Source: Pseudomonadota bacterium (GTDB lineage Bacteria; Pseudomonadota; Gammaproteobacteria; UBA9214). Taken from it: a stretch of 64,000 nucleotides of DNA. Below the pieces are notes generated by a model. The model did no database searches. It saw only the letters and a list, made by a program, of their open reading frames with translations, and had not been told where the DNA came from. Location of the stretch: positions 12,857-76,856 of the forward strand of contig JBDLIH010000005.1 of the NCBI GenBank assembly GCA_039714975.1. The letters are read 5' to 3'. Of this stretch, positions 2,349 through 61,756 are shown in pieces (position 1 is the first letter of the stretch; every line of letters starts with the position of its first letter). The translations under genes and the position numbers were made by a program.

Positions 2349-2434
2349 CCGGACAGGAAATAATCAATTCACATGTAGCCTGTGTGCATCCCTGCAGCAG
2401 CATGCTGCATGCGGGATTCAGCGTCTGATTATCA

Positions 2435-10712: not shown

Positions 10713-10926
10713 GTTATGCCCCCATTCGTTTTTGACGCCTTACCCATTCGTTGTTGATGCTTTAATTTAGATGAACTTGTAATACTGGCATTTGCCTGAA
10801 TTAGTGGCAATTTTATAGACTGATTATATGATGGAAATTTGATCTGGATCAAATATTACGGCCTGTTGATCCGGGCTCGCAGGGTGCGGGTCTGTCGTCG
10901 CCCGGGGTATTCCGGGATATGAGCAC

Positions 10927-31593: not shown

Positions 31594-31801
31594 TTTTTCT
31601 ATTGTCTCTCATGGGCTGGCCACCGAATCTATCAGTTTAAAATGACAGGTTAATTGATCCGCATCAAATATATGGAGGTTTCCTGCTGATAATGTAACCT
31701 ATTGGTCCTCGTTTGTTTAGCGATTCGGGATGCATGTATGGCTGCTGCCTGTGCGGACAGGTGGCACAGGGGAGCGCTGGGGCTATCCGGGTATAAGTCA
31801 A

Positions 31802-45774: not shown

Positions 45775-45884
45775 AGTCTTTAATTTGTATTAACGACAGG
45801 CAGTCGCACGGATTAGTGGATTAAAAATCGAATCATACCTGTTTCAGGCTGTTTAGCCCAAGACTGTACACAGGTAATATTGTT

Positions 45885-45914
45885 AAAAAAAAAAGGGCGG
45901 AATAATCCGCCCTT
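45885..45914 (-). terminator. Rho-independent terminator after the small Cys-peptide gene
   Basis: The minus strand reads AAGGGCGG-attatt-CCGCCCTT followed by T10. Confidence 0.8.
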
Positions 45915-45965
45915 GGGGATGGAACTGGAAAGTGGGGGGTTCCAGTCCCTGGAAACCGTGCTGTA

Positions 45966-46178
45966 CTAGTTAGCGATGCAAACCTTGTTTTTATTACCCC
46001 CAGGGTAAGTCGTTCGCGCATTGCAAGCCGTCTTGTCGAGGATTTCATCGCAGGTTACCGTGCTTTCACAATCCGAATCGACTGCGTGGCTGGTGCTAAC
46101 CAGCATCAGACTGCCAATGGCCAGCAACAGGCCGCCAACAAGTAACAGGGTTCCTGCAATGCCGTTTCTCATGACCAT
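45966..46178 (-). CDS. Small secreted Cys-rich peptide (70-aa precursor)
   Basis: Signal/anchor GTLLLVGGLLLAIGSLMLVSTSHA. The mature ~37 aa has 4 Cys. It has its own sigma-54 promoter and intrinsic terminator. The C-terminus is homologous to the C-terminus of the cytochrome at 49265-51907. Confidence 0.7.
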   Translation of the reverse strand: MVMRNGIAGTLLLVGGLLLAIGSLMLVSTSHAVDSDCESTVTCDEILDKTACNARTTYPGGNKNKVCIAN

Positions 46179-46217
46179 CTTTTCTGAATAGTGTTTTCCA
46201 TATAATTAGTGAACAAG

Positions 46218-46232
46218 GCAAGCTTCATGCCA
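46218..46232 (-). promoter_or_regulatory. Sigma-54 (-24/-12) promoter of the small Cys-peptide gene
   Basis: The minus strand reads CTGGCATGAAGCTTGCC (TGGCAT-N5-TTGC). The -12 element lies 40 nt upstream of ATG 46178. Confidence 0.75.
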
Positions 46233-46308
46233 GGCACGGGTAAATCAGGAACTTTCTGGCAGAATAGGACGTTAGCTTACACATTCCTCCTGGTCCAGAT
46301 TAGAAGCA

Positions 46309-46356
46309 TGACAAATTTGTCAGGTATGTCACATACAGTCTGTCAGACAAATGACA
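46309..46356. promoter_or_regulatory. TGTCA/TGACA array (candidate enhancer/UAS), site A
   Basis: Five pentamers in 48 bp, including the perfect 14-bp palindrome TGACAAATTTGTCA (46309-46322) and TGTCAGACAAATGACA (46341-46356). Lies 75-125 bp upstream of the -24 box. Confidence 0.6.
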
Positions 46357-46578
46357 TTATTGGCAAAAAAAACCTGTATCAAGAAAGAAAACCTGCCAAG
46401 GGTACACATACACAGGGTTGTTTAATGAGGCAGCTGTAATTACGGGATGATTCATCGCGCCGGGGAGGGCGCTCTCACAGGTTGGTGAAATAATGCATGG
46501 TAGAAATGTTTGCCAGGCTGGTGTTGATCTGGAGAATAGGGTGTTCGGTCGTTATCACGCTTCACCCATGGACTAAAC

Positions 46579-47373
46579 ATGTTTCTGCGACTACCGAAAT
46601 TCATCTGTGCATTGTTCCTCGCCTGCATGGCCGGCTGTGCGCCCGACTCGGGCCAGCAACCGCAACTCATGGTGTTTGCCGCGGCAAGTCTGCGCGATGT
46701 CATGAGTGAAGTGGGTACGCGTTTTGAGCAGGAACACGGCATCCACGTCAACTACAACTTCGCCGGCAGTAATGTGCTTGCCCAGCAACTCCTTGCTGCC
46801 CCCAAGGCCGACCTCTTTCTCAGTGCCAACAAAGCCTGGATGCGGCGTCTGGGACAGGCTGAGCGGATCGTGCCCGGCTCGCACCAGGCGGTTCTGGGCA
46901 ACCGGCTCGTGGTCATCGCCAATCATGCCAGTATCCTGAAGGCTAATCCCCGGGAACTGTTCTGCACGCCCGGCTTTGAATACCTTTCCATTGGCAATCC
47001 GGAGGCAGTGCCCGCTGGAATCTATGCCAGGGAGTGGCTGGAAAAACTTCCCTGCGACGAGGGCAGCGCCTGGGACGCGGTTGCCGGCCGCATTGCGCCG
47101 GCGCCTGACGTGCGCGCGGCCCTGGGTCTGGTGGAAGCCGATCGGGATATTCCGGGAATTGTCTATGCCACCGATGCGGCCATGTCGGACAAGGTGCGCG
47201 TCATTCAGGAGGTGAGCGGTAACGATGCGCCCGTCATCCTCTATTACGCGGCCCTGGTGGACAACGAATCCAGCCATGAGCAGGCCAGGCTGTTTCTTCG
47301 TTTCCTGACCGGCGAGCAGGCCGCCGAAGTGTTCCGTCGTTACGGTTTTACCGGTCCGCAGAACCATGAATGA
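46579..47373 (+). CDS. modA: Molybdate ABC transporter substrate-binding lipoprotein ModA
   Basis: Lipobox [15 protein letters not shown], and the overall ModA pattern. Followed by modB and modC. Confidence 0.85.
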
Positions 47374-48046
47374 GGCCTCGCTGACGGCGCTGCTGTTGAC
47401 GCTGCAATATGCCTCGCTGGCCACGGCCATCGTCTTTGTACCCGGCATGCTCATTGCCTATGTGCTGGCACGTTTTTCCTTTCCCGGCAAGGTCTTCGTC
47501 AGTGCCCTGACGAGCCTGCCCCTGGTCCTGCCGCCCACTGCGGTGGGTTATCTGTTGCTGCAGATGCTCGCCACTGACGGGATTCTCGGCAGGGAGATTC
47601 TGGGTGTCGACCTGGACATTCTGTTGACCGGAAAAGCGGTCGTCGTGGCATGCGCGGTGATGTCGGTGCCGCTGATTATCCGGACTGCCCGGATCGCCTT
47701 CGAGGGGGTGAATGACCGCTACGAGGCTATGGCGCGCACTCTGGGTTATGGACCTGTAGAAACCTTTCTGCGTTTCACCTTTCCACTGGCGGCACGCGGC
47801 CTGCTGGCGGCGATGATCCTGGGTTTCACCCGCGCCATGGGCGAGTTTGGTGTGACCGTCACGATTGCCGGCAACATCCCCGGCCGCACCCAGACCCTGG
47901 CCTCTGCCATCTTCAGTGCCCAGCAGGTCGGCAACGATCACGAGGCCAATTTCCTGGTTCTCGTTGCCCTGGCGACCGGCTTTTGTGCGATCCTGGCGGC
48001 CGAGTTCCTTTCGCTACGGGGCGCGCGTAGACGCAAATCCCCTTGA
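47366..48046 (+). CDS. modB: Molybdate ABC transporter permease ModB
   Basis: Five/six-TM permease with the conserved loop ...[24 protein letters not shown]. Confidence 0.85.
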
Positions 48047-49146
48047 GCAACGGCCATGAAATTCGGGCTAAGCTGAATCTGCCCCTCGATCGATTCACCC
48101 TGTCAGTGGATCTCAAGCTGCGCCGGCATGTGACGGGTATCTTTGGGGCTTCGGGTTCCGGAAAGACCAGCCTGCTGGAGACTGTTGCCGGACTCCGCCG
48201 CAGTGCGCAGGGCATGCTCCGTCTGGGTGACCAGCTGTGGCAGGACTCTTACCGGGGCGCCTTCATGCCGCCTGAACGCCGCAATATCGGTTATGTGCCC
48301 CAGGATGCCCTGCTGTTTCCACACCGGAATGTGCGTGCGAACCTGCTTATTGGCCAGCGCCGGGCGCGGTGCCAGGGTCAGGATGTCGAGGCCCTGCAGC
48401 AGGAAGTGATCGCCTTGCTGGAACTGGATGCCCTGCTGGAGCGCAACGTCGACACTCTCTCGGGAGGGGAGCGCCAGCGGGTGGCCTTGGGTCGGGCTCT
48501 GTGTTCCGGACCGCGGCTGCTGCTGATGGATGAGCCACTGGCTTCCCTCGACCTGGGTATGCGGCGCAAGTTGTTGCCCTTTCTGCGCACGATCCGCCAA
48601 TCCTTCGACATCCCCATGCTATTGGTCTCACACGACCCAATTGAGGTTCAGGCCCTGTGTGATGAGTTGGTGGTCCTGCAGGATGGTCAGGTCATTGCCC
48701 AGGGTGAACCCCGGGTTACCCTGATGCAGGCGTCCCGTGATGCGGCGGAATTTGCGCATTTGGTCGAAAATGTACTGCCTTGCCGCTTTGAGCGTCATGA
48801 GGGCGAGGCAACTCTGGTCCGTATCGGGCTTGAGGGCGATGGCCCGCTGCTGACACTGCCCCGGGTGAGCGGGGCGGGTGCAAGCGCGCAGATGATTGCC
48901 GTGCGCAGCCGGGACATTATCGTATCCAATACCCGGCCATACGGTCTCTCGGCCCGCAATGTCCTGCCCGGTGTGGTGCGGCGGGTGGCAGCGGCCGGCA
49001 AGAAATACCTGGTCTTTTGCGCAGTAGACCGGAGCGCGGTGGAACTGGCCGTGGAAGTCACGCTGGCCTCGCTGCAGGAACTGGATCTCAAGCCGGAAAC
49101 CCCGGTGTTTCTTATTATCAAGGCAACTACCCTGGAACTCTGCTGA
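48043..49146 (+). CDS. modC: Molybdate ABC transporter ATP-binding protein ModC
   Basis: Walker [37 protein letters not shown], and a C-terminal Mop/TOBE-like ~130 aa. Confidence 0.85.
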
Positions 49147-49205
49147 ACCGCATCAGCACGCTGAGTCATGCAGGCATCAACTTGATGCGAACTGATAAAT
49201 GCAAA

Positions 49206-49239
49206 GGCCCGGGAGAAGTTCGCCCGGGCCGTTGATTTT
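49206..49239. terminator. Bidirectional hairpin terminator between modC and the cytochrome gene
   Basis: GGCCCGGG (49206-49213) pairs with CCCGGGCC (49223-49230). It is followed by gttgatttt on the plus strand and by tttgcattt on the minus strand. Confidence 0.55.
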
Positions 49240-49264
49240 CTACTTCAAGGTTAACCAGGTCCGG

Positions 49265-51907
49265 CTAGATCGGGCTACAGACCTTGTTCTTGTTGCTATA
49301 GCTGCAGGTGGCCTGCGCGTTGCAGGAGGTCTTGTCGCCGTTGTACTGCGAGCAGTCGACCTGCTCGCAGACAGGATCTCCGCCGCAGTTGTCGATGTCA
49401 TCACAGTCGACCAGTCCGTTGCAGTCGTTGTCAACACCGTCATCACAGGTCAGCTCCGTCGGCCCTTCCGGTGTACAGACGTTCGACACACACTGGCCGT
49501 TCTTTGGGCTGCCCTGCCAGTCACAGACAGGATCATTATTGCAGCTACCCTTGTCTTCGTGTATGGAGCAACCCTGGCCTGTTAGGCAGTCGGTATCCGA
49601 CGCATCGGTAAAACCATCACAGTCGTTGTCGACACCGTCAGTGCAGAAAGTTTCCTGTGTTTCCTGGCCGGGGGTCGGATTGCAGACCGGCGGGGTACCC
49701 CATTCGACCGAGTACATGACCACCGGCGGCACCATCTTGTAGTCGCCGTTGATCATCTGCACGCCGGTGATTGGCGCGCCGGTACTCTGGACAACGTCGG
49801 CATTGAGCCAGGCATCCATCATGGCGTCACCCTGATTGCCGAGGAACGCGTTCTCCCCGGTGTTGGCCATCTGCAGGAACTGTATGTATTCCCAGCTGGT
49901 GCCCTGATAGAGCAGGTCGATGGTGGCATGGACAGCACCGATTGGCGGGTTGAGCAATACATCGTCCGCGTGCTCGTAGGTATCGCCTGTCCTGGTATAA
50001 CGGGTTTCCGGCACCGGCAGTGCGTTGCGCTTCTTGGCTTCGGTGTAGCTCATCTGATACGGCGGAATGCGGTTGTCCTTGGATACGTAGTTGTTGAGCG
50101 CAAAATGGAAGGTCTCATGGTAGTCGCCCGAGCAATCAGGATACTGGACGGGATCGTCGAGCAGGAACTGACTGACAGTACAGTCTGGCAGACCCGTTAA
50201 GCGGTCATAGCTGAGCGCGAAGTCCGGGTCTTGCACGGCCTGCACGATAACAGCCCATTCCCTGGTGATGGCGTAGTGCGCTTCGTAGATCTCGGTGTTG
50301 GTGCCATCCAGCTTGAGGATGGTTTCCACGGCATCGGCCTGACCGTCACCGTCGAGGTCCATGTCGGTCTGCAGGCTGCCGTACGCGCCATCTTCTCCAA
50401 CCAGGGCGCCTTCACTGTCATACCACTTGATGTTCAGCCACATGCGGCGTCCTTCAGGGTAGCCGGTGATCAGCTTGTGGCCGGTCAGGTTGGTGACCGT
50501 GACGGTGTTGCCCGTTACCGACAGGGCACCCGCTTCACGCAGATGCTTGGTGGCGCGTTCCTGGCCGAGGTCCATTGCCAGCAGCTGGGTGCTGTTCAGA
50601 CCACCGCCTACACGCAGCGTACCGACGTCAGGCCGATCCTGGTACTGTGCCATGCTGGCGAACCAGTAGTTGCCGCCGGTGTGGTCATGGCGCGGCAGGT
50701 CGGACCGTGTCTTGACGTTCTTGTTGCAACCTTTGCCGGTAGTCGGGCGCATATGGCAGCTCTGGCAGCTGAATTTACGCGGTGTACCGTCAGCATAGTC
50801 ACCTTCGATTATGCTTGAGTCATTTGGGTCACCCGGATCTGCCGCGATGGCGGCCTGGTAGGTGACTTCAAGAGAACCGCCCGCCACCTGCAGGTCGAGC
50901 GGGAGATCTTCATTGAATCGGCCAACGCGCATGTTTGAAAGCGGGCTGGACTTGTATTCGCTGAAGGTACGTTCGACGATGCCGTAGGCATACGGCGGGT
51001 TGTTGAACGCGGCCTTGTTGACGATGGCGCCGCCCAGGCAGCCGCCGCCGACTGCGGACAGGTCGCCGCCCTCGGGAAACGGCAGGATGGTGTTGCCATT
51101 GTCATCGACACAGTCGAAATCACGACTTGAAATAACTGTTGCGTCTGTAGGCGCCAGACTCTGGGTGCCATGGTTGCCGGCGAGGTCACCCACCGCTGAG
51201 TTGGACACGTCGTGGCAGCTTCCGCAGAAATCCGGGTCGCGGTGCCATGCTGACTGTCTGAACTGGTGGCGTGCTTCGGCATCATCCTCAGCGTATGGTC
51301 CCAGTTTTACATTGACGTCAGGCCACAGCGAGAGCATGCCGCTGCCGTAGAAGCCTTCGCCAGCCGAGCCGGTCTTCGTACATTTGTCAGGGACGTTTGG
51401 ATCGGGCTCACAGTTGGCGATAAACGGCGAGTTCATCATGCCCTGCAGTATGGGGTCGGAATTGTTCGGGTTGGTCGCGGCATGGCAGGTATCGCAGTCG
51501 ATGCCGTTATCATCGCTCGCTGCCAGGCCGGAACCGTCGGTCGGTGTGGAGCGGCCATCATACCAACCCTTGGCGCTGTGGCAGCGGATGCAGAGATCGC
51601 CCGCGCCGTCGAAGTCCTGCTCGGCAATGGCCAGCGTGGCCCAGAACACCGGGTCACGTCCGGCGTTACCCATGGCGGCGCCGCGCCAGCCCGTGGCAGG
51701 TTCGGCGCCCGGGTCGTCGAGGTTGTATCCGGCGTGGCAGTTGTCGCACTTGTCCGGTGACTCGAAATTCCCGACTTCACCCGGCTGGGTGCCGGGCATC
51801 TTGATTTCGTTAGGCACAACACCAGCTGCTTGCGCAGTGATTGCGAATATTAGTGTCAGGCAGGCGAGTAGTGCACCTATAGGCAGGTCTTTGGTGAGGC
51901 TTGTCAT
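49265..51907 (-). CDS. Secreted five-heme c-type cytochrome with C-terminal Cys/Asp-rich (MopE-like) repeats
   Basis: Signal peptide ...IFAITAQAAG. Five CXXCH motifs (CDNCH, CIRCH, CDTCH, CGSCH, CQSCH). The C-terminal ~125 aa contains CTDGVDNDCDGFTD and CDDGVDNDCNGLVD repeats. Confidence 0.85.
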   Translation of the reverse strand: MTSLTKDLPIGALLACLTLIFAITAQAAGVVPNEIKMPGTQPGEVGNFESPDKCDNCHAGYNLDDPGAEPATGWRGAAMGNAGRDPVFWATLAIAEQDFDGAGDLCIRCHSAKGWYDGRSTPTDGSGLAASDDNGIDCDTCHAATNPNNSDPILQGMMNSPFIANCEPDPNVPDKCTKTGSAGEGFYGSGMLSLWPDVNVKLGPYAEDDAEARHQFRQSAWHRDPDFCGSCHDVSNSAVGDLAGNHGTQSLAPTDATVISSRDFDCVDDNGNTILPFPEGGDLSAVGGGCLGGAIVNKAAFNNPPYAYGIVERTFSEYKSSPLSNMRVGRFNEDLPLDLQVAGGSLEVTYQAAIAADPGDPNDSSIIEGDYADGTPRKFSCQSCHMRPTTGKGCNKNVKTRSDLPRHDHTGGNYWFASMAQYQDRPDVGTLRVGGGLNSTQLLAMDLGQERATKHLREAGALSVTGNTVTVTNLTGHKLITGYPEGRRMWLNIKWYDSEGALVGEDGAYGSLQTDMDLDGDGQADAVETILKLDGTNTEIYEAHYAITREWAVIVQAVQDPDFALSYDRLTGLPDCTVSQFLLDDPVQYPDCSGDYHETFHFALNNYVSKDNRIPPYQMSYTEAKKRNALPVPETRYTRTGDTYEHADDVLLNPPIGAVHATIDLLYQGTSWEYIQFLQMANTGENAFLGNQGDAMMDAWLNADVVQSTGAPITGVQMINGDYKMVPPVVMYSVEWGTPPVCNPTPGQETQETFCTDGVDNDCDGFTDASDTDCLTGQGCSIHEDKGSCNNDPVCDWQGSPKNGQCVSNVCTPEGPTELTCDDGVDNDCNGLVDCDDIDNCGGDPVCEQVDCSQYNGDKTSCNAQATCSYSNKNKVCSPI

Positions 51908-51958
51908 TGTGGATCCCCTCGTACGTTTTTTGGAACTTCGATTTGATCTACGTACAAA

Positions 51959-51973
51959 GCAAGAACGGTGCCA
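51959..51973 (-). promoter_or_regulatory. Sigma-54 (-24/-12) promoter of the five-heme cytochrome gene
   Basis: The minus strand reads CTGGCACCGTTCTTGCTT, a full match to TGGCAC-N5-TTGC. The -12 element lies 52 nt upstream of ATG 51907. Confidence 0.85.
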
Positions 51974-52062
51974 GATCTATAATAGATCTAAAATAGTAAA
52001 GAATATCTTAAGGTTATTCAGAAAAGATAAAATCCATGTTCAGCCTGACTTATGTTGATAGC

Positions 52063-52118
52063 TGTCAGAATTGGCAGAGAGGTGCCAATTCTGGTGTCAG
52101 TAGATGTCAGTAATGACA
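52063..52118. promoter_or_regulatory. TGTCA/TGACA array plus 11-bp perfect inverted repeat (candidate enhancer/UAS), site B
   Basis: TGTCA at 52063, 52095 and 52105; TGACA at 52114. CAGAATTGGCA-N6-TGCCAATTCTG spans 52066-52093. Lies 90-145 bp upstream of the -24 box. Confidence 0.6.
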
Positions 52119-52149
52119 GTACTGCGTGACTGGAGAAATACTGCAGGCG

Positions 52150-53007
52150 TCAGATTATGTCATGGCGTAACGCAAGACCAACGGCTTCTGTGCGGCTATG
52201 TACCCCCAGCTTCAGGAACATGTTCTTGAAATGGTTGCGTACGGTCTCGGCACTGATAAACAATTGTTTGGCAATTTGCGCGGTCTTCACTCCCTCTGAC
52301 GCCATGTTCAGCAATTGTTTTTCCCGGGGCGTCAGGCGACTGAAACATGTGTCGGGATGTGTATCGGTATTCTTCGTATTGGCCATCCGTTGCAGCAGTT
52401 GCCGGGTACTAATGTGCCGCAGGCTGAAAAAGACGCCAACGTTATCGGTATTCTGCTGTAATTCAGCCGGTGTGTAGTAAGCGCCCACATTGACCATAAT
52501 GGAATTACCGTTCTCGTGATCCACCATCATGTCGATATTCCCGGCCGCCGGCCTGCCGCTAGCCCTTTGGGAGAAGGGGCAATCGTGTCCACAAATGGCG
52601 TTTCCATGCAGGCCGACGCTGCACAGCACCCCGGCGCACGCGGTATTCAGGATATCTTCCCGGGTATGTCCCAGCAGATTTTCGCAACTGCTGTTCCAGA
52701 AGCGGATTCTTTTCTCACCATCAATGCCAAATACAGCATCTGTGCTCTGTTCAAAGACCTGGTACATGCCATTCATCATCTGGTTTCCCTTTAATGCATT
52801 ATCTGGAACCCATCCTTGTTGTTTATCAAACAGCCTTGTCCCGGTAACGATATATTCGGATGCACCAAACGTGCCAGAAATCTGTTTCGTATAAACAGAT
52901 GAATCTAAAGGTGTAAAATCACGGCTGCTCAGATCGTTCTGATCGAACATGACATAAATGACATATGTAAATGCCGATATGACGTTATTGGCATATTTTG
53001 GTGACAT
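52150..53007 (-). CDS. PAS-domain LuxR/FixJ-type (HTH) transcriptional regulator
   Basis: PAS core ...STDAVFGIDGEKRIRFWNSSCENLLGH... with a four-Cys cluster CAGVLCSVGLHGNAICGHDCP. The C-terminal HTH is LTPREKQLLNMASEGVKTAQIAKQLFISAETVRNHFKNMF. There is no receiver domain and the start is uncertain. Confidence 0.8.
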   Translation of the reverse strand: MSPKYANNVISAFTYVIYVMFDQNDLSSRDFTPLDSSVYTKQISGTFGASEYIVTGTRLFDKQQGWVPDNALKGNQMMNGMYQVFEQSTDAVFGIDGEKRIRFWNSSCENLLGHTREDILNTACAGVLCSVGLHGNAICGHDCPFSQRASGRPAAGNIDMMVDHENGNSIMVNVGAYYTPAELQQNTDNVGVFFSLRHISTRQLLQRMANTKNTDTHPDTCFSRLTPREKQLLNMASEGVKTAQIAKQLFISAETVRNHFKNMFLKLGVHSRTEAVGLALRHDII

Positions 53008-53237
53008 TAACTGACCAGGGAGGGAGGTTTTCCTCGTACGGTTTTGCCTGGTGCACTTTATCGAATATGACCCATGTGACGAGATTTATGACTCAAACGG
53101 GTCATTCATTCCGTATGGAGTAACCGCCAGAATCATTACCCATGACCAGTTGCCTGTGACGCCAGTGGTGTCGCAGGGTACGTGGTCCGGATAACGATAG
53201 TTCAACTAATTTTGGTCCGGTGACAGGAGGACAGGGG

Positions 53238-56030
53238 ATGGGCATTAAACGGCGTGTATTTCTGAAGATGCTGGCCGGGACGACGGTCACGGCGGCCTCC
53301 ATCAAGGCTTTTGGACTGGCTGGTGATAGCCTGAAGGTTGTTAGCGATCCCTATGCCTATCCACCGCAATACCGGGGCTGGGAGGATCTGTACCGTGACG
53401 AATGGACCTGGGACAGTGTGGCGCGCAGCACCCACGGCGTAAACTGCACCGGGTCGTGTTCGTGGAAAGTCTATGTCAAGGACGGCATGATCATGCGCGA
53501 GGAGCAGGCCGCCGACTTCCCCGTGATTGATCCGGCACTGCCCGACCTTAACCCGCGCGGTTGTAACAAGGGCGCCTGTTATACCGCCGAGTATGTCAAT
53601 GGCGACCGGCGCATCAAGTACCCGCTGCGTCGTACCGGCCCGCGTGGCTCCGGGCAATGGGAACGGATTTCCTGGGACACGGCGCTGACCGATATTGCCG
53701 ACCAGGTTATTGCAAATATCCAGGACAGTGGCCCGGATTCGCTTACCTTCTTCTCGCCCATCCCGGCCATGAGCCCGGTCTCCTTTTCGGCAGGTATCCG
53801 TCTGGCACACTTGCTTGGCGGCGTGGCCTGCAGTTTCTATGACTGGTACTGCGACCTGCCTCCCGGTTCGCCCATTACCCTGGGCGAGCAGACCGACGTG
53901 GCCGAGTCCACCGACTGGGTGAATTCCAAATACATGATCCTGTGGGGTTCGAACCCGGTGCAGACGCGCATCCCGGATGCCCACTTTGTTACCGAGGCAA
54001 AATACAACGGGTGCAAGGTACTGGCTATCTATCCTGATTTTGCCTCCAGTTCTATCCGTGCTGATCGCTGGCTGTCCGTTGAACCGGGCACCGATGCGGC
54101 CCTGGCGCTGGCCATCTGCCAGCACCTGATCGCAAGCGGCCAGTACGACGTGGGTTACCTGCAGGAGCAGACCGACATGCCGTTCCTGGTGGACACCGTC
54201 ACCGGCAAGTATCTGCGTGAGGCCGATGTGGTCACCGGTGGTGCTGAAGATCGGTTCTACGTCTGGTCCGGTGGTCAGCCTGAACTGGCACCTGATAGCG
54301 GTCTGGACCTGGGAAATCTCTCGCCAGTGCTCAACGGTGGTAGCTACGACGTCGACACTCTGAGCGGCTCGGTAACCGTAGAGACGGTATTTGACCGCCT
54401 CGCGACGCGCCTGCAAGCGAATGATCCATATGGACTGGTCTCGGCCGAGACCGGCGTAAGCGGCCAGGTTATCAGCGAGATCGCCGATGAAATCGGCGCC
54501 GCCGGTATCAGCAGTGGCGGCCAGGTGATGATTATGCACGGTGCCGGCACCAATCACTGGTACCACAACGACCTCAACAACCGTGCCATGCTGCTGATGC
54601 TGAGCCTGCTCGGTGCCATCGGCAAGAACGGCGGTGGTTTCAACCACTACGTGGGCCAGGAGAAGATCTGGCCGGGTGCTGGTCTAGGGAAGCTGTCATT
54701 CCCGCTGGGCACGGCATTTCAGCGTTTCCAGAACACCACCCTGTGGACCCATGTACATGCCGAACTTGATGATCAACCTGCCGCCGACATGAGTCAGACC
54801 ACCCGTGGTTATATGTTTGACTCGGTGGCCAATGGCTGGATGCCGCTTTACCCCGAAGGGGCGATGGGCAACGACAAGGCCAGCTTCGTAGCCAATGGGG
54901 TTCCGGTGAAGGACCCCAAGATGATGTTCATCTGGCGCGCCAACTGGTTCAACCAGGCCAAGGGCAATAACTACATAGAGGCCAGCCTGTATCCCAAGCT
55001 GAACATGATCGTTGACCTCAACTTCCAGATGGATACCACGGCTTTTTATGCCGACATCGTGCTGCCTTCAGCGAGCCACTACGAGAAGCACGACCTCAAT
55101 ACCACGGACATGCACAGTTTCTGCCATCCGTTCAATCCGGCGATCCCGCCCATGTTTGAATCCAAAACCGACTGGCAGATCTTCCAGGCGCTGGCGGCGA
55201 AGATCGAGGAGCGGGCGGGTGGTCTCACCTACGACGATTCGAAAGCGCCGGGCGGGGAACGTGACCTGTCGACCCTGGCAAGCGATTTTACCAATAATGG
55301 CGCCATTGCGGCGGATATCGATGCCGCCCAGTTGATTCTCGACAATGCCCCGGAGACCGTTGGCATGACCATGGCGGGCATTACGGCACAGCCGCAACGC
55401 TTCAACGCCACCACTAACTGGACCAGCAATATCGAAGAGGGACGGCCCTACACGGCCTTCCTGAAACACACCGAAGGCGATAAGGATCTATACCATACTC
55501 TCACCGGCCGTCAGCAATACCTGATTGAGCACGAGTGGTTCGTGGAGGCCGGTGAGGAACTGCCAACCTATAAACCGCCGGTGTTGGCAGCAGGGGAGGA
55601 GAGCTTCCCGCTGCTCTACAACACCCCGCACGGCCGCTGGGCCATCCATTCGACCTGGCGAAATGCCAAGCAGATGCTGCGCCTCAATCGCGGTGGCCCG
55701 ATCTGCTACATGCATCCCTCGGACATGGCCAGTCGCGGCCTGGTGGATGACGACTGGGTGAAGATGCACAACAACCACGGCCAGGTCATCGTCCGGGTCA
55801 AGGCAATGGAAAGCGAGAAGGCAGGCCGTGTCACCATGTTTCACAGCTGGGAGCGTTACGTCGGTGTGAAGGGGCAGATGGCCAACTTCAACAGCGTGAC
55901 GGGCATCCGTATCAAGCCCACCCAGCTTGCCGGGGGCTACGGTCAACTGAAATTCAAGCTCAACTACTGGGGGCCTACCGGCGTGCAGCGGGATACGCGG
56001 GTTGAAGTGGAGAAATACGTCGAACCCTGA
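53238..56030 (+). CDS. Type II DMSO-reductase-family molybdoenzyme, catalytic alpha subunit (Tat-exported, NarG/EbdA/SerA-like)
   Basis: AGGAGG lies 7 nt before ATG 53238. Tat signal MGIKRRVFLKML. FS0 motif HGVNCTGSCSWKVYVKDG. The NarG-like Mo-ligand region is SFYDWYCDLPPGSPITLGEQTDVAESTDW. Confidence 0.85.
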   Translation: MGIKRRVFLKMLAGTTVTAASIKAFGLAGDSLKVVSDPYAYPPQYRGWEDLYRDEWTWDSVARSTHGVNCTGSCSWKVYVKDGMIMREEQAADFPVIDPALPDLNPRGCNKGACYTAEYVNGDRRIKYPLRRTGPRGSGQWERISWDTALTDIADQVIANIQDSGPDSLTFFSPIPAMSPVSFSAGIRLAHLLGGVACSFYDWYCDLPPGSPITLGEQTDVAESTDWVNSKYMILWGSNPVQTRIPDAHFVTEAKYNGCKVLAIYPDFASSSIRADRWLSVEPGTDAALALAICQHLIASGQYDVGYLQEQTDMPFLVDTVTGKYLREADVVTGGAEDRFYVWSGGQPELAPDSGLDLGNLSPVLNGGSYDVDTLSGSVTVETVFDRLATRLQANDPYGLVSAETGVSGQVISEIADEIGAAGISSGGQVMIMHGAGTNHWYHNDLNNRAMLLMLSLLGAIGKNGGGFNHYVGQEKIWPGAGLGKLSFPLGTAFQRFQNTTLWTHVHAELDDQPAADMSQTTRGYMFDSVANGWMPLYPEGAMGNDKASFVANGVPVKDPKMMFIWRANWFNQAKGNNYIEASLYPKLNMIVDLNFQMDTTAFYADIVLPSASHYEKHDLNTTDMHSFCHPFNPAIPPMFESKTDWQIFQALAAKIEERAGGLTYDDSKAPGGERDLSTLASDFTNNGAIAADIDAAQLILDNAPETVGMTMAGITAQPQRFNATTNWTSNIEEGRPYTAFLKHTEGDKDLYHTLTGRQQYLIEHEWFVEAGEELPTYKPPVLAAGEESFPLLYNTPHGRWAIHSTWRNAKQMLRLNRGGPICYMHPSDMASRGLVDDDWVKMHNNHGQVIVRVKAMESEKAGRVTMFHSWERYVGVKGQMANFNSVTGIRIKPTQLAGGYGQLKFKLNYWGPTGVQRDTRVEVEKYVEP

Positions 56031-56132
56031 GCGGAGCACGTGAATTGAAGTGGAAAAATACAATGGTTAAGCAAATAAACAAGTTAACAGCGTTACCGGG
56101 TAACCGGGTAACCGAGACTGGAGGTACCTGCA

Positions 56133-57149
56133 ATGGCTAAAGGTGGAGGTGGTGGTGGCAATCAGATTGCGATGCTCATCAATCTTGATAAGTGTCTTGG
56201 CTGCCATACGTGTACGGTTGCTTGCAAGAACCTGTGGACCAACAAGGGTGGCCGCGAGTACATGTACTGGAACAACGTTGAATCGCGTCCCGGCGAGGGT
56301 TACCCGAGGAACTGGGAAGGTATGGGCGGTGGCTTCCAGGGCGGTCAACCTGACCCGGGTATCTTCCCGGCAAACAGCGACTACGGCCTGGGCGACCAGG
56401 GTCAGATCGTCGATTTCGATTATCCGACACGCCTGGGTCATGATCCGGACAACGTGACCCCGAATCCCGGTATCGTCGATGCCGACCCGCAACCGGAGTG
56501 GCTGTCCAACTGGGACGAGGAGCAGGGTGACGGTACGTTCCCGAACAGCTACTACTTCTATCTGCCGCGTATGTGCAATCATTGCGATCGGCCCGCGTGT
56601 CTGGAGTCCTGTCCGCGCAAGGCCATCTACAAGCGCGAGGAGGACGGCATCGTGCTGGTGGACCAGGATCGCTGCCGCGGCTACCGCCAGTGCGTGCGCA
56701 CCTGCCCCTACAAGAAAGTCTTCTTCAACAGCGAGACGCTGAAATCGGAGAAGTGCATCTTCTGCTACCCGCGTATCGAAGCTGGCGAGGCCACCGCCTG
56801 TGCGGTGCAATGCCCCGGCCGCGTCCGCCATGTGGGTTTCGTGAGCGACGCTTCCTCGGATGTCTACAGGCTGGCCAAGGACCTGAAGGTGGCCCTGCCG
56901 CTGCATCCGGAGTACGAGACCGGACCCAACGTCTACTATATACCGCCCTTCTCGGGGCCTTCACAGGTCGATTCGAACGGAAATCTGATAAACGTGGAAC
57001 GGATACCGGTGGCCTACCTGCGCTTCCTGTTTGGCGATGAAGTCGATGCGGCCATCGCCACCCTGCGAGACGCCAGGGCTAACGGCGACCCGGACGGCAT
57101 CCTTGCCATCCTGAATTCCAATAATCGTTACGACATACCGCAACCGTAG
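56133..57149 (+). CDS. Molybdoenzyme beta subunit (NarH/EbdB-like, four Fe-S clusters)
   Basis: CLGCHTCTVACK, CNHCDRPACLESCP, CRGYRQCVRTCPY and CIFCYPRIEAGEATACAVQCP. Confidence 0.9.
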   Translation: MAKGGGGGGNQIAMLINLDKCLGCHTCTVACKNLWTNKGGREYMYWNNVESRPGEGYPRNWEGMGGGFQGGQPDPGIFPANSDYGLGDQGQIVDFDYPTRLGHDPDNVTPNPGIVDADPQPEWLSNWDEEQGDGTFPNSYYFYLPRMCNHCDRPACLESCPRKAIYKREEDGIVLVDQDRCRGYRQCVRTCPYKKVFFNSETLKSEKCIFCYPRIEAGEATACAVQCPGRVRHVGFVSDASSDVYRLAKDLKVALPLHPEYETGPNVYYIPPFSGPSQVDSNGNLINVERIPVAYLRFLFGDEVDAAIATLRDARANGDPDGILAILNSNNRYDIPQP

Positions 57150-57159
57150 GGGGCTAGTC

Positions 57160-58392
57160 ATGAAAACGTCTATGATGAAACACAACTGGTTACGCCTCCT
57201 TTGCATCCTCGTGTGTCTCTCGTTCACCGCGGGCATGAGCGCCGGCGCCTTTGCGGCCCCTCCGGATCGAGACGGCGATGGTTACGATAAGCGATCCGAC
57301 TGCGACGACAATAATGCCGCCGTCAATCCGGGCGCAACAGAAGGCCCGTTTGGTGACGCGACCTGTTCCGATACCTGGGACAACGACTGCAATGGATTGA
57401 CCGATGGAGACGATCCGCAATGTCAGGGCGGTGTCACATGCACCGACAACGACCTGGATGGTTACGGCAGTCCGGGCGATCCCTCCTGTCCGAACGGCGG
57501 AGCCACGGACTGCGACGACAATAATGCTGCCGTCAACCCGGACGCGACGGAAGGCCCGTTTGGTGACCCAACCTGTACAGATACCTGGGACAACAACTGT
57601 AACGGATTGACCGACGTTGATGACCTGAGTTGCCAGCTTGTCGACGAGGTCTGCAATGATGGCTTCGACAACGACGGTGATGGCAATATTGACTGCGCCG
57701 ATTCGGACTGTGCCGGCGAATCTGCCTGCACCGCGGGCAATAAGCTGACGGTCAACCGAGTTACCGGCACCGTGCTGGGCATCGGGCCGGATGACGGTCT
57801 GTGGAACGCCACCGCAGCGACCAGCTACAACCTGGCCTGGCGCGACGATATCAATGATACCTGTCCGCCGGAGCAAAGCTGCAGTGGTAACCAGCCGAGC
57901 TTGACGGTCAAGGCCATCCACAACGGCACCGACATCGCCTTCCTGATGTCCTGGACCGATGTCGACCAGAGCAGCGAGGTCTATCAGCCGTCGGAATTCG
58001 GCGACCGCGCCGTGATCATGCTCAACGCCAACCGCATTTGCCAGATGGGCAGTCCGACCAATCCGACCAATATGTGGTTCTGGAATGCGGCGGACAAGAC
58101 CCAGGAGACCGAGGGATCATATGGCAGCGTGCAGAACCTGCTCGGGGGTGGGATCGGCACTATCACCCATACCGATGGCGACGACAACATCCAGGCAGTC
58201 AGCAGCTACGCGGGAGGCATGTGGCAGGTGGTAATGAGTCGTCCGCTGGCCGCGATTGATCCGCTTGATCAGTTCGAGTTTACTCTTGGTGTGACCACCG
58301 ATGTGTCCTATGCCGTGTATGATGGAGCGTTCAAGCAGCGCAACGGGTCCAAGTGGATCAGCGGCCGGGAAGCGATAAACATCGCACCTTGA
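57160..58392 (+). CDS. Molybdoenzyme gamma subunit (EbdC/DdhC/SerC-like heme-b domain) with N-terminal Cys/Asp-rich repeat extension
   Basis: Sec signal ...GMSAGAFAAPP. Residues ~35-200 hold three DxDxDG...CDDNNAAVNPxATEGPFGDxTCxDTWDNxCNGLTD-type repeats. The C-terminal ~210 aa is EB_dh-like (LTVKAIHNGTDIAFLMSWTD, FGDRAVIMLN, MWFWNA, GMWQVVMSRPL). Confidence 0.75.
   Translation: MKTSMMKHNWLRLLCILVCLSFTAGMSAGAFAAPPDRDGDGYDKRSDCDDNNAAVNPGATEGPFGDATCSDTWDNDCNGLTDGDDPQCQGGVTCTDNDLDGYGSPGDPSCPNGGATDCDDNNAAVNPDATEGPFGDPTCTDTWDNNCNGLTDVDDLSCQLVDEVCNDGFDNDGDGNIDCADSDCAGESACTAGNKLTVNRVTGTVLGIGPDDGLWNATAATSYNLAWRDDINDTCPPEQSCSGNQPSLTVKAIHNGTDIAFLMSWTDVDQSSEVYQPSEFGDRAVIMLNANRICQMGSPTNPTNMWFWNAADKTQETEGSYGSVQNLLGGGIGTITHTDGDDNIQAVSSYAGGMWQVVMSRPLAAIDPLDQFEFTLGVTTDVSYAVYDGAFKQRNGSKWISGREAINIAP
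57298..57414 (+). repeat. Intragenic direct repeat, copy 1 (~117 bp)
   Basis: gactgcgacgacaataatgccgccgtcaatccg...acctgggacaacgactgcaatggattgaccgat.... By eye it is highly similar to 57508-57624, offset by 210 bp (70 codons). Confidence 0.85.
57508..57624 (+). repeat. Intragenic direct repeat, copy 2 (~117 bp)
   Basis: gactgcgacgacaataatgctgccgtcaacccg...acctgggacaacaactgtaacggattgaccgac.... Confidence 0.85.
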
Positions 58393-58402
58393 TTGCCGGG
58401 CA

Positions 58403-59092
58403 ATGACTACAGAAGCAAAGGAGAACAACATGTCGGGACAAGCTGCACTGGAAATGACGAAGCTCACGGACGAGGATCTTGTCGATGTTAACCGCAGTCG
58501 GCTGTACAAGCTGCTTGCCCTGGGGTTCGGGTTTCCGTGCAAGGATTTGCATGATGCACAGGCCGAACTCCGGGAAATCGCGGCAGCGCTGTATCCCGAT
58601 CTGGAACTGAACCGGGAAGATGTGAACCTGCTGGCCCCGGAAATCGAGTCGTTGTACATCAATGTGCTCGATGGGCATAACCAGAAAAAGGCCTGCAGGC
58701 CCTACGAAACTGCCTGGCGAGAGGGCGAACGGTCCATGCAGCAGTGGGAAGTGAAGAAGTTATACCAGATATTCGGTCTGGAGCTGAACAAGGAAACCAA
58801 CGAGTTGCCGGACCATATCGTGAACGAACTGGAGTTCATGCATTTCCTCAGTCATCAGGCAGTGGAGGCCAGCAGGGGGCTGCTGGGTGATGGCGACAGC
58901 CGCAAGCAGTATGTGCATGCGCAGAAGGACTTTCTGGAGCGGCACCTCAGTCTGTGGGTGCCAAAATTCTGCAAGGCACTGCAGGAAAAGATTGACGAAC
59001 CGTTCTACATGAATCTCGCAGCCCTCACGGAACAGTTTGTCACGGATGACCTCGAGTGGGTGCAGGAGCAGTACGAGGCCGAGAACGGCTAG
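58403..59092 (+). CDS. TorD/NarJ/EbdD-family molybdoenzyme maturation chaperone
   Basis: RSRLYKLLALGFGFP and ELPDHIVNELEFMHFL. Its position is directly after the structural genes. Confidence 0.8.
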   Translation: MTTEAKENNMSGQAALEMTKLTDEDLVDVNRSRLYKLLALGFGFPCKDLHDAQAELREIAAALYPDLELNREDVNLLAPEIESLYINVLDGHNQKKACRPYETAWREGERSMQQWEVKKLYQIFGLELNKETNELPDHIVNELEFMHFLSHQAVEASRGLLGDGDSRKQYVHAQKDFLERHLSLWVPKFCKALQEKIDEPFYMNLAALTEQFVTDDLEWVQEQYEAENG

Positions 59093-59113
59093 CCGCGACT
59101 TCCATTTACTGCC

Positions 59114-60109
59114 ATGCCTAACCTTGTTGATTCGTTCGGGCGCTGCATCGATTACCTGCGGATTTCAGTTACCGACCGTTGTAATTACCACTGCTTCTAC
59201 TGCCGGCCGGCCGGTGCGGTGGTCGATGGCAGCCATCATGACTTTCTCAGGCATGAGGAAATAGCTCGCCTGGTCCGCCTGTTTTCCGAACTGGGTGTGA
59301 GCAAGGTGCGGCTCACCGGTGGTGAACCGCTGCTGCGGCGCAATCTTGCAGGGTTGGCGACCATGATCACCGGCCTGCCGGGGATTGCCGATCTTTCCCT
59401 GTCCACCAACGGCCATTTGCTCGAACGTTTCGCGGCACCGCTGCAAGCGGCGGGGATAGGGCGCGTCAATATCTCCCTGGATTCCCTGGATCAGGATAAT
59501 TTCTCGGCCATTACCTGTGGTGGCGATCTCGACTGCGTCATCAAGGGAATCGAGGCCGCTCAGGCAGCCGGTATGACACCGATAAAGATCAACATGGTGG
59601 TCATGAAGGGGGTCAATGAACACGAGATCGATAGCATGCTGGACTTCGCGCTGGAGCGGGGTCTGGAGCTGCGTTTTATTGAAACCATGCCGGTGGGAAC
59701 GGCCGGTGCCGGTAACATGGTCCATTATTATCCGGCTGCCCGGATTCTCGAGCATATTCGCGCGCATTACGGTTCCCGGCTTGTTCCCGTGCAGGGACAA
59801 CGCGGGCCGGGACCCGCACGTTACTATCAGGCCGGCGACAGTGATGTAAAGGTCGGGGTGATATCCGCGGTATCCAGGCATTTCTGCGAGAGCTGTAATC
59901 GCGTGCGCCTGACAGCGCGCGGCGATCTGGTGCTTTGTCTGGGTCACGAGGACCGGGTTTCATTGCGCAGTGCGCTGCGTGACGGGCGTTCCGATGCCGG
60001 GATCAAGCAGGACATCCTGGCAGCCATCGCGAGAAAACCGGAACACCATGATTTCAGCAGTAAGGCTGACCAGCCGGTTACCGCTCAAATGGTCACCCTG
60101 GGTGGATGA
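59114..60109 (+). CDS. moaA: GTP 3',8-cyclase MoaA (molybdenum cofactor biosynthesis)
   Basis: Radical-SAM CNYHCFYC and LTGGEPLLR. The C-terminal cluster is CESCNRVRLTARGDLVLCL. Confidence 0.9.
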   Translation: MPNLVDSFGRCIDYLRISVTDRCNYHCFYCRPAGAVVDGSHHDFLRHEEIARLVRLFSELGVSKVRLTGGEPLLRRNLAGLATMITGLPGIADLSLSTNGHLLERFAAPLQAAGIGRVNISLDSLDQDNFSAITCGGDLDCVIKGIEAAQAAGMTPIKINMVVMKGVNEHEIDSMLDFALERGLELRFIETMPVGTAGAGNMVHYYPAARILEHIRAHYGSRLVPVQGQRGPGPARYYQAGDSDVKVGVISAVSRHFCESCNRVRLTARGDLVLCLGHEDRVSLRSALRDGRSDAGIKQDILAAIARKPEHHDFSSKADQPVTAQMVTLGG

Positions 60110-60174
60110 AGCCCGGGCGGCACGATGACAACGGGTTCGAGCGTGAAGATAAAAAAGGCAGGAAACTGATTGGG

Positions 60175-60801
60175 ATGTCAGAGCACGGTGAGACAGGCAG
60201 GGTTCAGCCACTGACAGCAGCGCTGTTCAGTCTCATATTCGTGTGCGCATGCGTTCCTGTTTCCGCTGATGAATCGGTCGAGGCCGCCCGGGCGGCGGCT
60301 CACGCCGCCGAGGCAGCCAGAGAGGGAACCGGGATTCCTGCGCTTCCGGAGAAACAGATGGCTGCCTACCTGGATGGCCGGGCGATGTGGATGGCCAGTG
60401 TGGCAGAGCTGAATCATTATCCCGACCCGCGGCAGGTACTGGAACTCGCAGCGAAGCTTGAACTCTCCGCGGAACAGCAACAGGCCACCATGAAGCTTTA
60501 TGATGAAACACGCCCGGAGGCAATCCGTCTTGGCAAACAACTGGTAGAACAGGAGCAGAGACTTAACCGGGTCTTTGCATGGGGACAGGCATCAGGAAAA
60601 AATATCAGGCAAGTCGTGACTGACATCGGCGCACTTAAGGCAAAACTCAGATTAACGCATCTGCTGGCCCACATTAGTACAAGAGAACTGCTCACGGAAG
60701 ATCAGGTCAAGCGCTATGATGAACTTCAGGGCTATGGCGAAACAACCGGGGAGAGCGGTAACAGGATGGGCTGCAATGCCATGCATCATCACGGGCGCTG
60801 A
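60175..60801 (+). CDS. Periplasmic CpxP/Spy/ZraP-like protein with His-rich C-terminus
   Basis: Signal peptide ...LFSLIFVCACVPVSA. LTxxQ-type helices (LSAEQQQATMKLYDE, LTEDQVKRYDEL). The C-terminus is ...CNAMHHHGR. The start could instead be ATG 60106 (ATGA-coupled to moaA). Confidence 0.6.
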   Translation: MSEHGETGRVQPLTAALFSLIFVCACVPVSADESVEAARAAAHAAEAAREGTGIPALPEKQMAAYLDGRAMWMASVAELNHYPDPRQVLELAAKLELSAEQQQATMKLYDETRPEAIRLGKQLVEQEQRLNRVFAWGQASGKNIRQVVTDIGALKAKLRLTHLLAHISTRELLTEDQVKRYDELQGYGETTGESGNRMGCNAMHHHGR

Positions 60802-61622: not shown

Positions 61623-61642
61623 GCTTAGTATCGTTATCTGTT

Positions 61643-61720
61643 ATGTCAATCATGTCAATCATGCCAATTATGTCATAAGTATAACCCGACATTATGTTAT
61701 ACTCACTGACAGTATTGACA
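61643..61720. promoter_or_regulatory. 9-bp-periodic ATGTCAATC iterons and TGACA pair upstream of the sigma-54 activator gene, site D
   Basis: ATGTCAATC ATGTCAATC ATGCCAATT ATGTCATAA (61643-61678), then TGACA at 61707 and 61716, again 9 bp apart. Confidence 0.6.
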
Positions 61721-61756
61721 GCAGACATGCAACACTACTGATTCCGTGGGGGCATC

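Follow-up and report, generated by a model that had tools for sequence, protein, structure and literature searches.

Classical sigma-54-dependent promoters are known from several pairs of activator and target, among them NtrC and glnAp2, NifA and nifH (activator sites of the form TGT-N10-ACA), and NorR and norVW (three GT-N7-AC sites). FisR of Cupriavidus pinatubonensis JMP134, which Li et al. are said to have described in 2017, is reportedly a sigma-54-dependent activator that responds to sulfide or sulfane sulfur. The described targets of FisR are sqr and pdo; to our knowledge, only three classes of reactive-sulfur sensors are known, FisR being one of them. Here, we analyzed a 64,000-nt stretch of DNA from a gammaproteobacterium of the UBA9214 lineage (contig JBDLIH010000005.1, positions 12,857 to 76,856; referred to below as the window), in which a predicted sigma-54 promoter stands in front of a gene for a secreted five-heme cytochrome and a putative FisR-family activator is encoded farther along the contig. 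Our main conclusion is that the element at 51959-51973 of the minus strand is probably a real sigma-54 promoter served by the activator encoded at 61757-63163. FisR senses through three cysteines of its regulatory domain and forms a Cys53-Cys64 tetrasulfide upon exposure to sulfane sulfur (PMC9495516; PMC12754779; background in PMC7315123). On the side of the cytochrome, c552 of Thermochromatium tepidum, ExtKL and the "long" Gsu2801 have been grouped as one pentaheme cytochrome (PHC) family (PMC11976967), and ExtKL/MccSep of Geobacter sulfurreducens is described as a sulfur-induced polysulfide reductase (bioRxiv 10.1101/2025.11.18.688581).

The locus shares with the NtrC, NifA and NorR systems the GG and GC dinucleotides at -24 and -12, several candidate sites about 80 to 170 bp upstream, a spacer over which the DNA could loop, and an activator with a GAFTGA-type loop. 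It differs from them in its motif (TGNCA-N4-TGNCA), its 9-bp register and its AT-rich spacer, in which no consensus for the integration host factor (IHF) is present. Its activator has the same layout as FisR of C. pinatubonensis JMP134 and A. baumannii, with a cysteine-bearing regulatory domain, an AAA+ domain and a Fis-type helix-turn-helix (HTH), and the three sensory cysteines of FisR recur in it with the same spacing (11 and 7 residues). As in the FisR system, most relatives of the window activator are encoded divergently from their sigma-54 target, and TGNCA repeats are found upstream of the target in both. Unlike fisR, the activator gene of the window is located 9.8 kb from the promoter, it encodes a fourth invariant cysteine (C97), and several promoters are predicted per regulon; FisR targets pdo-sqr, whereas the predicted targets in the window are the pentaheme cytochrome, a LuxR-type regulator and a small Cys-rich peptide. 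In the literature that we searched, we found nothing linking FisR to multiheme cytochromes, Sedimenticola or Thiodiazotropha, and no published FisR operator or binding site that could be used for comparison. The mechanism is canonical. For the target gene, the enhancer motif and the multi-promoter regulon, that literature seems to contain no description.

The minus strand reads TGGCAC-CGTTC-TTGC at 51973-51959, as had been claimed in an earlier note on this DNA. The GG (51972-51971) and the GC (51960-51959) are exactly 10 bp apart, and the following base is a T, so that the longer form TGGCAC-N5-TTGCW is matched as well (TGGCACCGTTCTTGCT, 51973-51958). No other exact match to TGGCAC-N5-TTGC exists in the window. 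The gap of 52 nt between this element and the ATG at 51907 was also as claimed, and GAGGGG is found in front of that start codon at 51920-51915. Transcription of the cytochrome gene is predicted to start at about 51947, which would leave a 5' untranslated region of about 40 nt. No sigma-70-like promoter was found on the minus strand of 51908-52150. A weight-matrix scan, which the earlier note had proposed as a check, ranked the site first in the window with 16.6 bits; the matrix is an approximation of the compilation of Barrios et al. (1999), and all bit scores given here are approximate.

Upstream of this element, the four TGTCA/TGACA pentamers announced in the earlier note were found at plus-strand starts 52063, 52095, 52105 and 52114. 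The perfect 11-bp inverted repeat was also found, with the arms CAGAATTGGCA-N6-TGCCAATTCTG at 52093-52083 and 52076-52066; it spans 52066-52093 on the minus strand and is built on two pentamers. Its arms supply one TGGCA and one TGCCA, giving six TGNCA pentamers in total, 9 to 12 bp apart. According to the dyad statistics and the family-wide conservation described below, this array (52063-52118, minus strand) is a putative enhancer, or upstream activating sequence; it includes the dyads TGTCA-ttac-TGACA and TGCCA-attc-TGACA. The position of -90 to -145 previously assigned to it holds when counted from the -24 element (-91 to -146 from the GG) but not from the predicted start of transcription, which places it at about -116 to -171. 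Two other roles of the inverted repeat were considered and rejected. As to a terminator, the transcribed repeat is predicted to fold into a stable hairpin, but no U tail follows; as to a conserved operator, the repeat is absent from the closest orthologues.

The TGNCA-N4-TGNCA dyad occurs 12 times in the window, compared with 2.07 expected, and none of 100 shuffles reached this number. Ten of the 12 dyads fall into four short clusters, located at three predicted sigma-54 promoters (that of the cytochrome gene and those at 46218-46232 and 52862-52876) and in front of the activator gene. The motif was then quantified in a family set of 55 nonredundant upstream regions, less than 85% identical to each other and aligned on the -24 element. 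These regions contained 283 TGNCA pentamers, about 7-fold more than the 38 ± 6.6 found in shuffles, nearly all of them between -162 and -63. The dyad was present 56 times, with 0.1 expected, and the start-to-start spacing was mostly 9 bp. The family consensus of the dyad is a-TGACA-TAAT-TGTCA-t, with an AT-rich spacer. The putative enhancer unit is TGNCA, usually arranged as TGNCA-N4-TGNCA, and it is the predicted site of the activator.

The AT-rich tract noted at 51974-52060 was confirmed, with a G+C content of 26% compared with 56% for the window; the part at 51974-52054 (minus strand) separates the enhancer from the promoter. Family promoters similarly average 68 to 70% A+T at -62 to -3. 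The IHF consensus WATCAR-N4-TTR had no match in the spacer of the window and 3 hits in the family with 1.8 expected, and an IHF site in this tract was rejected on both counts. The AT-rich spacer may give intrinsic bending. Beside the array, a promoter-proximal palindrome-like box, cTGACAgctATCAA, is present at 52055-52068 (minus strand). As an FNR/CRP-like box it reads cTGACagctATCAA, with one mismatch to TTGAY-N4-RTCAA. A perfect TTGAY-N4-RTCAA palindrome was found in 18 of the 55 related promoters, at a fixed position of -70 or -86 from the -24 GG (the loci include L002, L005, L074, L092, L094 and L123 to L130), and the tail ATCAACATAAG of the box is common to the window and L141. An FNR-type site would be unusual at a sigma-54 promoter, and the box may instead be a proximal site of the activator.

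The conservation of the promoter was examined in 71 loci with cytochrome orthologues from reference genomes. Forward sigma-54 sites of at least 12 bits were present in seven of them and a reverse site in one. The closest gammaproteobacterial orthologues (L002, L004, L005 and L074) had sites of 16.6 to 19.7 bits located 63 to 84 nt before the ATG, L085 had one at 64 nt, and the cytochrome orthologues of related uncultured Gammaproteobacteria had a site 40 to 100 nt before the start codon. The core TGGCAC-CGTTC-TTGC is identical in the orthologue L094 and nearly identical in others, for example TGGCATTGTTCTTGC.

The gene arrangement in other loci connects the activator to this promoter. An orthologue of the activator gene is located directly upstream of the cytochrome gene, and divergent from it, in 23 loci, with a sigma-54 site between both genes. 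The genome or assembly loci with this pair are L002, L005, L020, L074, L085 and L086, and the full-length activators of L002, L005, L020, L074 and L085/L086 are 53 to 59% identical to that of the window, sensor domain included; the sensor domains of cytochrome-adjacent orthologues are 47 to 85% identical. The sensor domain alone, when searched against metagenome contigs, gave 80 loci, 74 of which were usable. The cytochrome was the divergent gene in 17 of the 80. A sigma-54 site of at least 12 bits within 450 nt was found on the divergent strand in 48 of the 74 usable loci and on the same strand in 4. In the window, the divergent neighbor of the activator gene is a DsbA-like gene without a sigma-54 site. 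The gene behind the divergent promoter was usually the cytochrome; in L158, it encoded a different multiheme protein with MopE repeats. In 56 of the 74 loci, one or more exact TGNCA dyads were present no farther than 480 nt from the start of the activator gene. Since some of these loci have no sigma-54 site, the motif travels with the activator gene. In the genome loci, the presence of the activator coincided with that of the sigma-54 site (table 3/1/4/63; hand-calculated Fisher P value of about 0.002). The earlier proposal that the cytochrome gene is a direct target of the 61757-63163 activator, which had been based on the proximity of the activator gene, is thus supported by divergent gene linkage, sigma-54 sites and shared TGNCA arrays, and we retain it as a prediction.

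The activator itself (61757-63163, plus strand) is an AAA+ protein, as described before; a PAS, a Sigma54_activat and an HTH_8 domain were recognized in it. The Sigma54_activat domain (E value of 4e-62; 209 bits, with a Pfam cutoff of 20.2) is accompanied by a Walker A motif, and the Fis-type HTH_8 is located at residues 425 to 465. The sigma-54-contacting loop reads GAYTGS, and those of the orthologues read GSFTGS or GAFTGS, all variants of GAFTGA. The sensor is a Cys-rich PAS-like domain with C65, C76, C83 and C97. A tblastn search of plasmid and chromid records found a match on the megaplasmid of Cupriavidus metallidurans CH34. The window activator is 39% identical to this FisR-like protein over the full length and 44% over residues 17 to 101. 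The CH34 gene is divergent from genes for a persulfide-dioxygenase-like protein (pdo) and an sqr-family protein. The cysteines of the CH34 protein are at positions 53, 64 and 71, the residue numbers reported for C. pinatubonensis FisR; C65, C76 and C83 of the window activator align with them and are kept in all eight aligned family members. Based on its domains, this homology and the cysteine alignment, we assign the activator to the FisR family. The CH34 fisR-pdo spacer contains TGCCA-N5-TGCCA-N4-TGCCA-N3-TGGCA upstream of TGGCAC-N5-TTGA, in agreement with the pentamer array of the window. In the distant orthologues L164 and L166, the divergent gene belongs to the sulfide:quinone reductase (sqr) family and is located behind a sigma-54 site; in L164, it is followed by an FccB-like gene. 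Targets of the sqr family were found in these two loci only, and the target in the window is the pentaheme cytochrome rather than pdo or sqr. Because the sensor keeps the three cysteines with which Cupriavidus FisR senses, and because sqr-linked relatives belong to the activator family, sulfane sulfur (sulfide-derived polysulfide or persulfide) is the likeliest signal, with, in our estimate, about an even chance of being the true one.

We infer DNA binding, sigma-54 dependence, the signal and looping from the sequence features, conservation, linkage and homology given above. In the mechanism that we propose, sigma-54 RNA polymerase would bind 51973-51959 as a closed complex, and the FisR-family activator would bind the TGNCA array at 52063-52118, mostly at TGNCA-N4-TGNCA dyads one helical turn apart. 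The activator would then oligomerize and loop across the AT-rich spacer, in which there is no IHF consensus, to reach the polymerase. ATP hydrolysis and the GAYTGS loop would finally open the cytochrome promoter.

Several observations weigh against this reading. The exact 10-base consensus was observed once, with 0.33 expected per window, and 29 of 100 shuffles had at least one such match; the first rank in the weight-matrix scan stood, but 6 of 30 shuffles equaled its score. Therefore, the promoter match alone is not significant window-wide. A chance match without function would account for these counts. We nevertheless consider it barely credible, as the site is intergenic, correctly oriented and at a typical distance from the gene, it co-occurs with a highly nonrandom array, and its position and core are kept in orthologues down to 47% identity in the activator sensor domain. 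It is conservation in orthologous loci, not the consensus match, that decides in favor of the predicted promoter being real. This conservation has its limits. In L081, the nearest cytochrome orthologue (76% identity), both a sigma-54 site and a nearby activator are missing, and most of the distant cytochrome orthologues have no sigma-54 site. Therefore, the sigma-54 promoter and its link to the activator are confined to some lineages. Part of the motif enrichment could also be due to inheritance rather than selection, given the shared ancestry of the related promoters, although their sequences are less than 85% identical. The FisR assignment goes through one protein, that of CH34, which is itself called FisR by synteny and cysteine numbering. 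Furthermore, no rpoN gene was found within the window, and the activator gene, 9.8 kb from the cytochrome promoter, is not adjacent to it. This distance, together with L081 and L084, in which the cytochrome gene is unlinked from the activator, could mean that the promoter is real and is activated by another enhancer-binding protein encoded outside the window, the 61757-63163 protein acting on other targets; many such activators are commonly present in bacterial genomes. We regard this as improbable: no second activator of this type was found within the window, the same TGNCA arrays are present at the activator gene and at all three promoters of the window, and the activator and cytochrome genes are divergent neighbors in the 23 loci mentioned above.

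The signal is a separate matter. C97, in the sequence SCLHVH of the sensor (encoded at 61757-62176), is invariant in cytochrome-linked activators and is a valine in the sqr-linked relatives and the CH34 protein. This residue may reflect a different sensing chemistry, and the signal could therefore differ from that of FisR, a further point to be counted against the proposed reading. With the pairing of promoter and activator unchanged, the four invariant cysteines and nearby histidines of the cytochrome-linked clade might bind a metal or an iron-sulfur cluster, and the sensor would then report oxygen, redox state or metal. Such a sensor would be consistent with the invariance of C97, H70, H99 and H101 in the close activator clade, with the FNR-like box beside the TGNCA array, and with neighboring genes (a type II molybdoenzyme operon, moaA, modABC and a ZraP-like gene) that suggest anaerobic respiration and metal handling; moreover, A. 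baumannii FisR functions without these cysteines (PMC7315123). Nevertheless, we find it somewhat unlikely. The three Cupriavidus FisR cysteines are kept with identical spacing, distant relatives of the activator adjoin sqr- and fccB-like genes, the cytochrome has its sole structural relative in a purple sulfur bacterium, and polysulfide reductase activity is described for a short pentaheme relative (bioRxiv 10.1101/2025.11.18.688581). The array and palindrome could also be bound by a factor other than the FisR-family activator. A gene for a regulator with a PAS domain and a LuxR-type HTH is located immediately upstream of the cytochrome gene, and no intrinsic terminator was found on the minus strand between its stop at 52150 and the cytochrome gene. 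Because of this, read-through from the third promoter (52862-52876) may add to cytochrome expression. If the PAS-LuxR protein or an FNR/CRP-type factor bound the array and palindrome, for which the fixed position of the FNR-like box in 18 of 55 relatives could speak, the cytochrome gene might be expressed mainly by such read-through. This seems very improbable to us, as arrays are present at L074, L085 and L123, where there is no match to the PAS-LuxR protein, and in the Cupriavidus fisR-pdo spacer. The arrays also accompany the activator gene, as shown by the 56 of 74 loci with a nearby dyad, and their distance from the -24 element is in the classic range of an enhancer; read-through and an own promoter are, in any case, compatible with each other.

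The target gene (49265-51907, minus strand) encodes an 880-aa secreted cytochrome with five CXXCH motifs and C-terminal acidic double-disulfide (MopE-like) repeats, the latter matched by NCBIfam; no Pfam family was matched. Its homologues number more than 4,500 and are mostly named "hypothetical." The family is found widely among sediment bacteria, with members in Shewanella and Methanosarcina as well, and the five CXXCH motifs are either invariant or found in 78 to 79 of 80 homologue sequences. The AlphaFold2 model had a mean predicted local distance difference test score (pLDDT) of 78.6, lower in the heme region, and a predicted TM-score of 0.78. According to Foldseek, its only significant fold match in the PDB is 5ZE8, the pentaheme cytochrome c552 of T. 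tepidum (E value of 1.3e-4; probability of 1.00), with a TM-score of 0.54 on the target and 0.26 on the query and a root mean square deviation of 10.9. A profile search of PDB sequences with the cytochrome found no cytochrome. The protein resembles the PHC group in its five CXXCH motifs, the sole significant match of its predicted fold and a sulfur theme, c552 having been suggested to act in sulfur metabolism. Unlike the members of this group, it is about twice as long (with a core of about 740 aa), carries variable adhesin-like or Cys-rich C-terminal repeats, and has neither a selenocysteine site nor a sequence-level match to any PDB chain. The Cys-rich repeats of the tail (49265-49700) showed a weak sequence match to the C-rich domain of teneurin-4 (7PLP; E value of 0.005); the corresponding fold comparison was not significant (E value of 2.4; TM-score of 0.68 on a 42-residue target). 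Homologues of the cytochrome replace this tail by Ig-like, cadherin-like, PKD or thrombospondin repeats, and such exchangeable tails suggest attachment to a surface or matrix.

A DsbA-like thioredoxin-fold lipoprotein, recognized by domain searches, is encoded at 60789-61622 (minus strand). In L002, L074, L084, L085 and L123, a DsbA-like gene is located downstream of the cytochrome gene, and in L085 and L123, genes for an AhpC/thioredoxin-like protein and a DUF2059 protein follow as well. The neighborhood of the Shewanella orthologue was uninformative. Together with the fold match to c552 and the polysulfide reductase activity described for ExtKL/MccSep, these neighbors fit, without proving, a role of the cytochrome in extracytoplasmic sulfur or thiol redox chemistry. 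We tentatively put forward the following as a joint reading, one that is plausible but that we would not call probable. A four-cysteine variant of FisR would control, through a TGNCA-N4-TGNCA code, a multi-promoter regulon in uncultured marine-sediment Gammaproteobacteria; the core of this regulon would be the long secreted pentaheme cytochrome with DsbA-like and AhpC/thioredoxin-like partners, not sqr-pdo; and the PAS-LuxR regulator may pass the signal on to the type II molybdoenzyme operon. If this is true, more than 4,500 "hypothetical" cytochromes would be assigned to periplasmic or extracellular redox chemistry of polysulfide or sulfane sulfur. The mechanism is that of textbooks and the promoter itself is unsurprising; the value lies in the tie, through conserved gene order and a conserved enhancer, between FisR relatives and a large family of five-heme cytochromes without an assigned function. 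It leads to a testable hypothesis, namely, that expression of the cytochrome responds to sulfane sulfur and that the cytochrome may act on polysulfide. The TGNCA-N4-TGNCA arrays are, in addition, a candidate operator for predicting FisR regulons in genomes, and a regulatory cascade is possible through the PAS-LuxR protein beside the molybdoenzyme operon.

At least three predicted sigma-54 targets, the cytochrome gene included, are present in the window. As judged from the shared arrays, the promoters at 46218-46232 and 52862-52876 are probably also under the control of the FisR-family activator, which probably binds in front of its own gene as well. The second promoter, TGGCAT-GAAGC-TTGC (46218-46232, minus strand; 16.0 bits), is located about 40 nt before a 70-aa open reading frame (ORF) at 45966-46178 (minus strand), and the window dyad scan placed an array of seven TGNCA pentamers upstream of this promoter, at 46309-46398 (minus strand). 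The ORF encodes a signal peptide and a Cys-rich tail and is followed by an intrinsic terminator at about 45885-45915 and then by ccmA. Its tail (..DKTACNARTTYPGGNKNKVCIAN) resembles the C terminus of the cytochrome (..DKTSCNAQATCSYSNKNKVCSPI), and tblastn places the ORF on the C termini of cytochrome orthologues. Either a small secreted peptide or a cytochrome paralogue with an internal deletion could be encoded here. An orthology of its promoter to those of L100 and L104 was rejected; the latter align with the 5' end of the cytochrome gene. In many metagenome loci (L100, L104, L126, L127, L131, L113, L116 and about 12 more), the promoter divergent from the activator gene is followed only by an ORF of 31 to 90 aa, which consists of the cytochrome signal peptide and at most the first 20 to 30 mature residues (AADVVPNEIxMPGTQP) and then a stop. 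The short ORFs of L100 and L104 are succeeded by a terminator and then ccmA. These short ORFs could reflect repeated gene decay, assembly artifacts or real small peptides.

The third promoter, TGGCAC-GTTTG-GTGC (52862-52876, minus strand; 15.2 bits), has its array at 52950-53006 (minus strand), as found in the same scan, and is located 82 nt before the ATG at 52779. Both fall inside the 5' end of the LuxR-type ORF as called (52150-53007). However, the first 76 codons of this ORF have a G+C content at third codon positions of 0.37, compared with 0.62 downstream, i.e., an intergenic composition, and the L093 orthologue begins at the residue that corresponds to M77, with an array and TTGGTATGGGAATTGCA in front. 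Therefore, the true start is probably the ATG at 52779 and not 53007, and the PAS plus LuxR-type HTH regulator recognized by the domain search would occupy 52150-52779 (minus strand). This arrangement points to a cascade in which the activator would act on the LuxR-type regulator and the latter perhaps on the divergent molybdoenzyme operon. The PAS domain of the regulator has four cysteines, and its ..CGHDCP.. aligns weakly with ..GEDCPH.. of the activator (pairwise E value of 0.037); with this weak match alone, the idea that it is a paralogue of the FisR sensor was not supported, although a distant paralogy of the two sensors is conceivable. In front of the activator gene, a further TGNCA array at 61644-61720 consists of four tandem 9-bp units ATGYCAATN and the dyad TGACA-gtat-TGACA. 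It is located within the 134-nt gap (61623-61756) from the DsbA-like gene to the activator gene, with its last pentamer 21 nt from the DsbA-like start codon and without a sigma-54 site. The same layout is present in the closest relative, L093. The array is probably an autoregulatory site, or alternatively an enhancer that lost its promoter by rearrangement. The best sigma-54 scores in front of the molybdoenzyme operon, the DsbA-like gene and the activator gene did not exceed 3.9 bits, and no known RNA family was found in 45800-53300. L093 has an extra gene (2243-3149) between the DsbA-like and activator genes, for which the window has no counterpart. It encodes a 244-aa protein with one CXXCH and acidic double-disulfide repeats and is accompanied by a separate TGNCA array and a TGGAAC-N5-TTGC site.

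In the genomic surroundings, the LuxR-type gene is upstream of the cytochrome gene on the same strand, and divergent from it is an operon of the type II dimethyl sulfoxide reductase family (53220-60801). This operon encodes the alpha subunit (with a Tat signal), the beta and gamma subunits, a chaperone, MoaA and a ZraP-like protein. Perchlorate reductase PcrA is the closest to the alpha subunit among solved structures (E value of 5e-257), and the gamma subunit has a heme-b EB_dh domain and MopE-like repeats and is of the Ser/Clr/Ddh type. The DsbA-like gene (minus strand) and then the activator gene follow. On the other side of the cytochrome gene are modABC and the ccm operon for cytochrome maturation. 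The left half of the window (237-34626) has an unusually dense set of phosphate and polyphosphate genes. It comprises phoR/phoB, pstSCAB with a PhoU-phosphatase fusion, a polyphosphate kinase and a PHO4 transporter, together with a Na/Pi cotransporter-PhoU fusion, a CHAD protein, three CNNM/CorC proteins, and several histidine phosphatases and NUDIX proteins. Perfect FNR-type palindromes, TTGATCTGGATCAA (10839-10852) and TTGATCCGCATCAA (31654-31667), are present in or near intergenic regions of this phosphate cluster.

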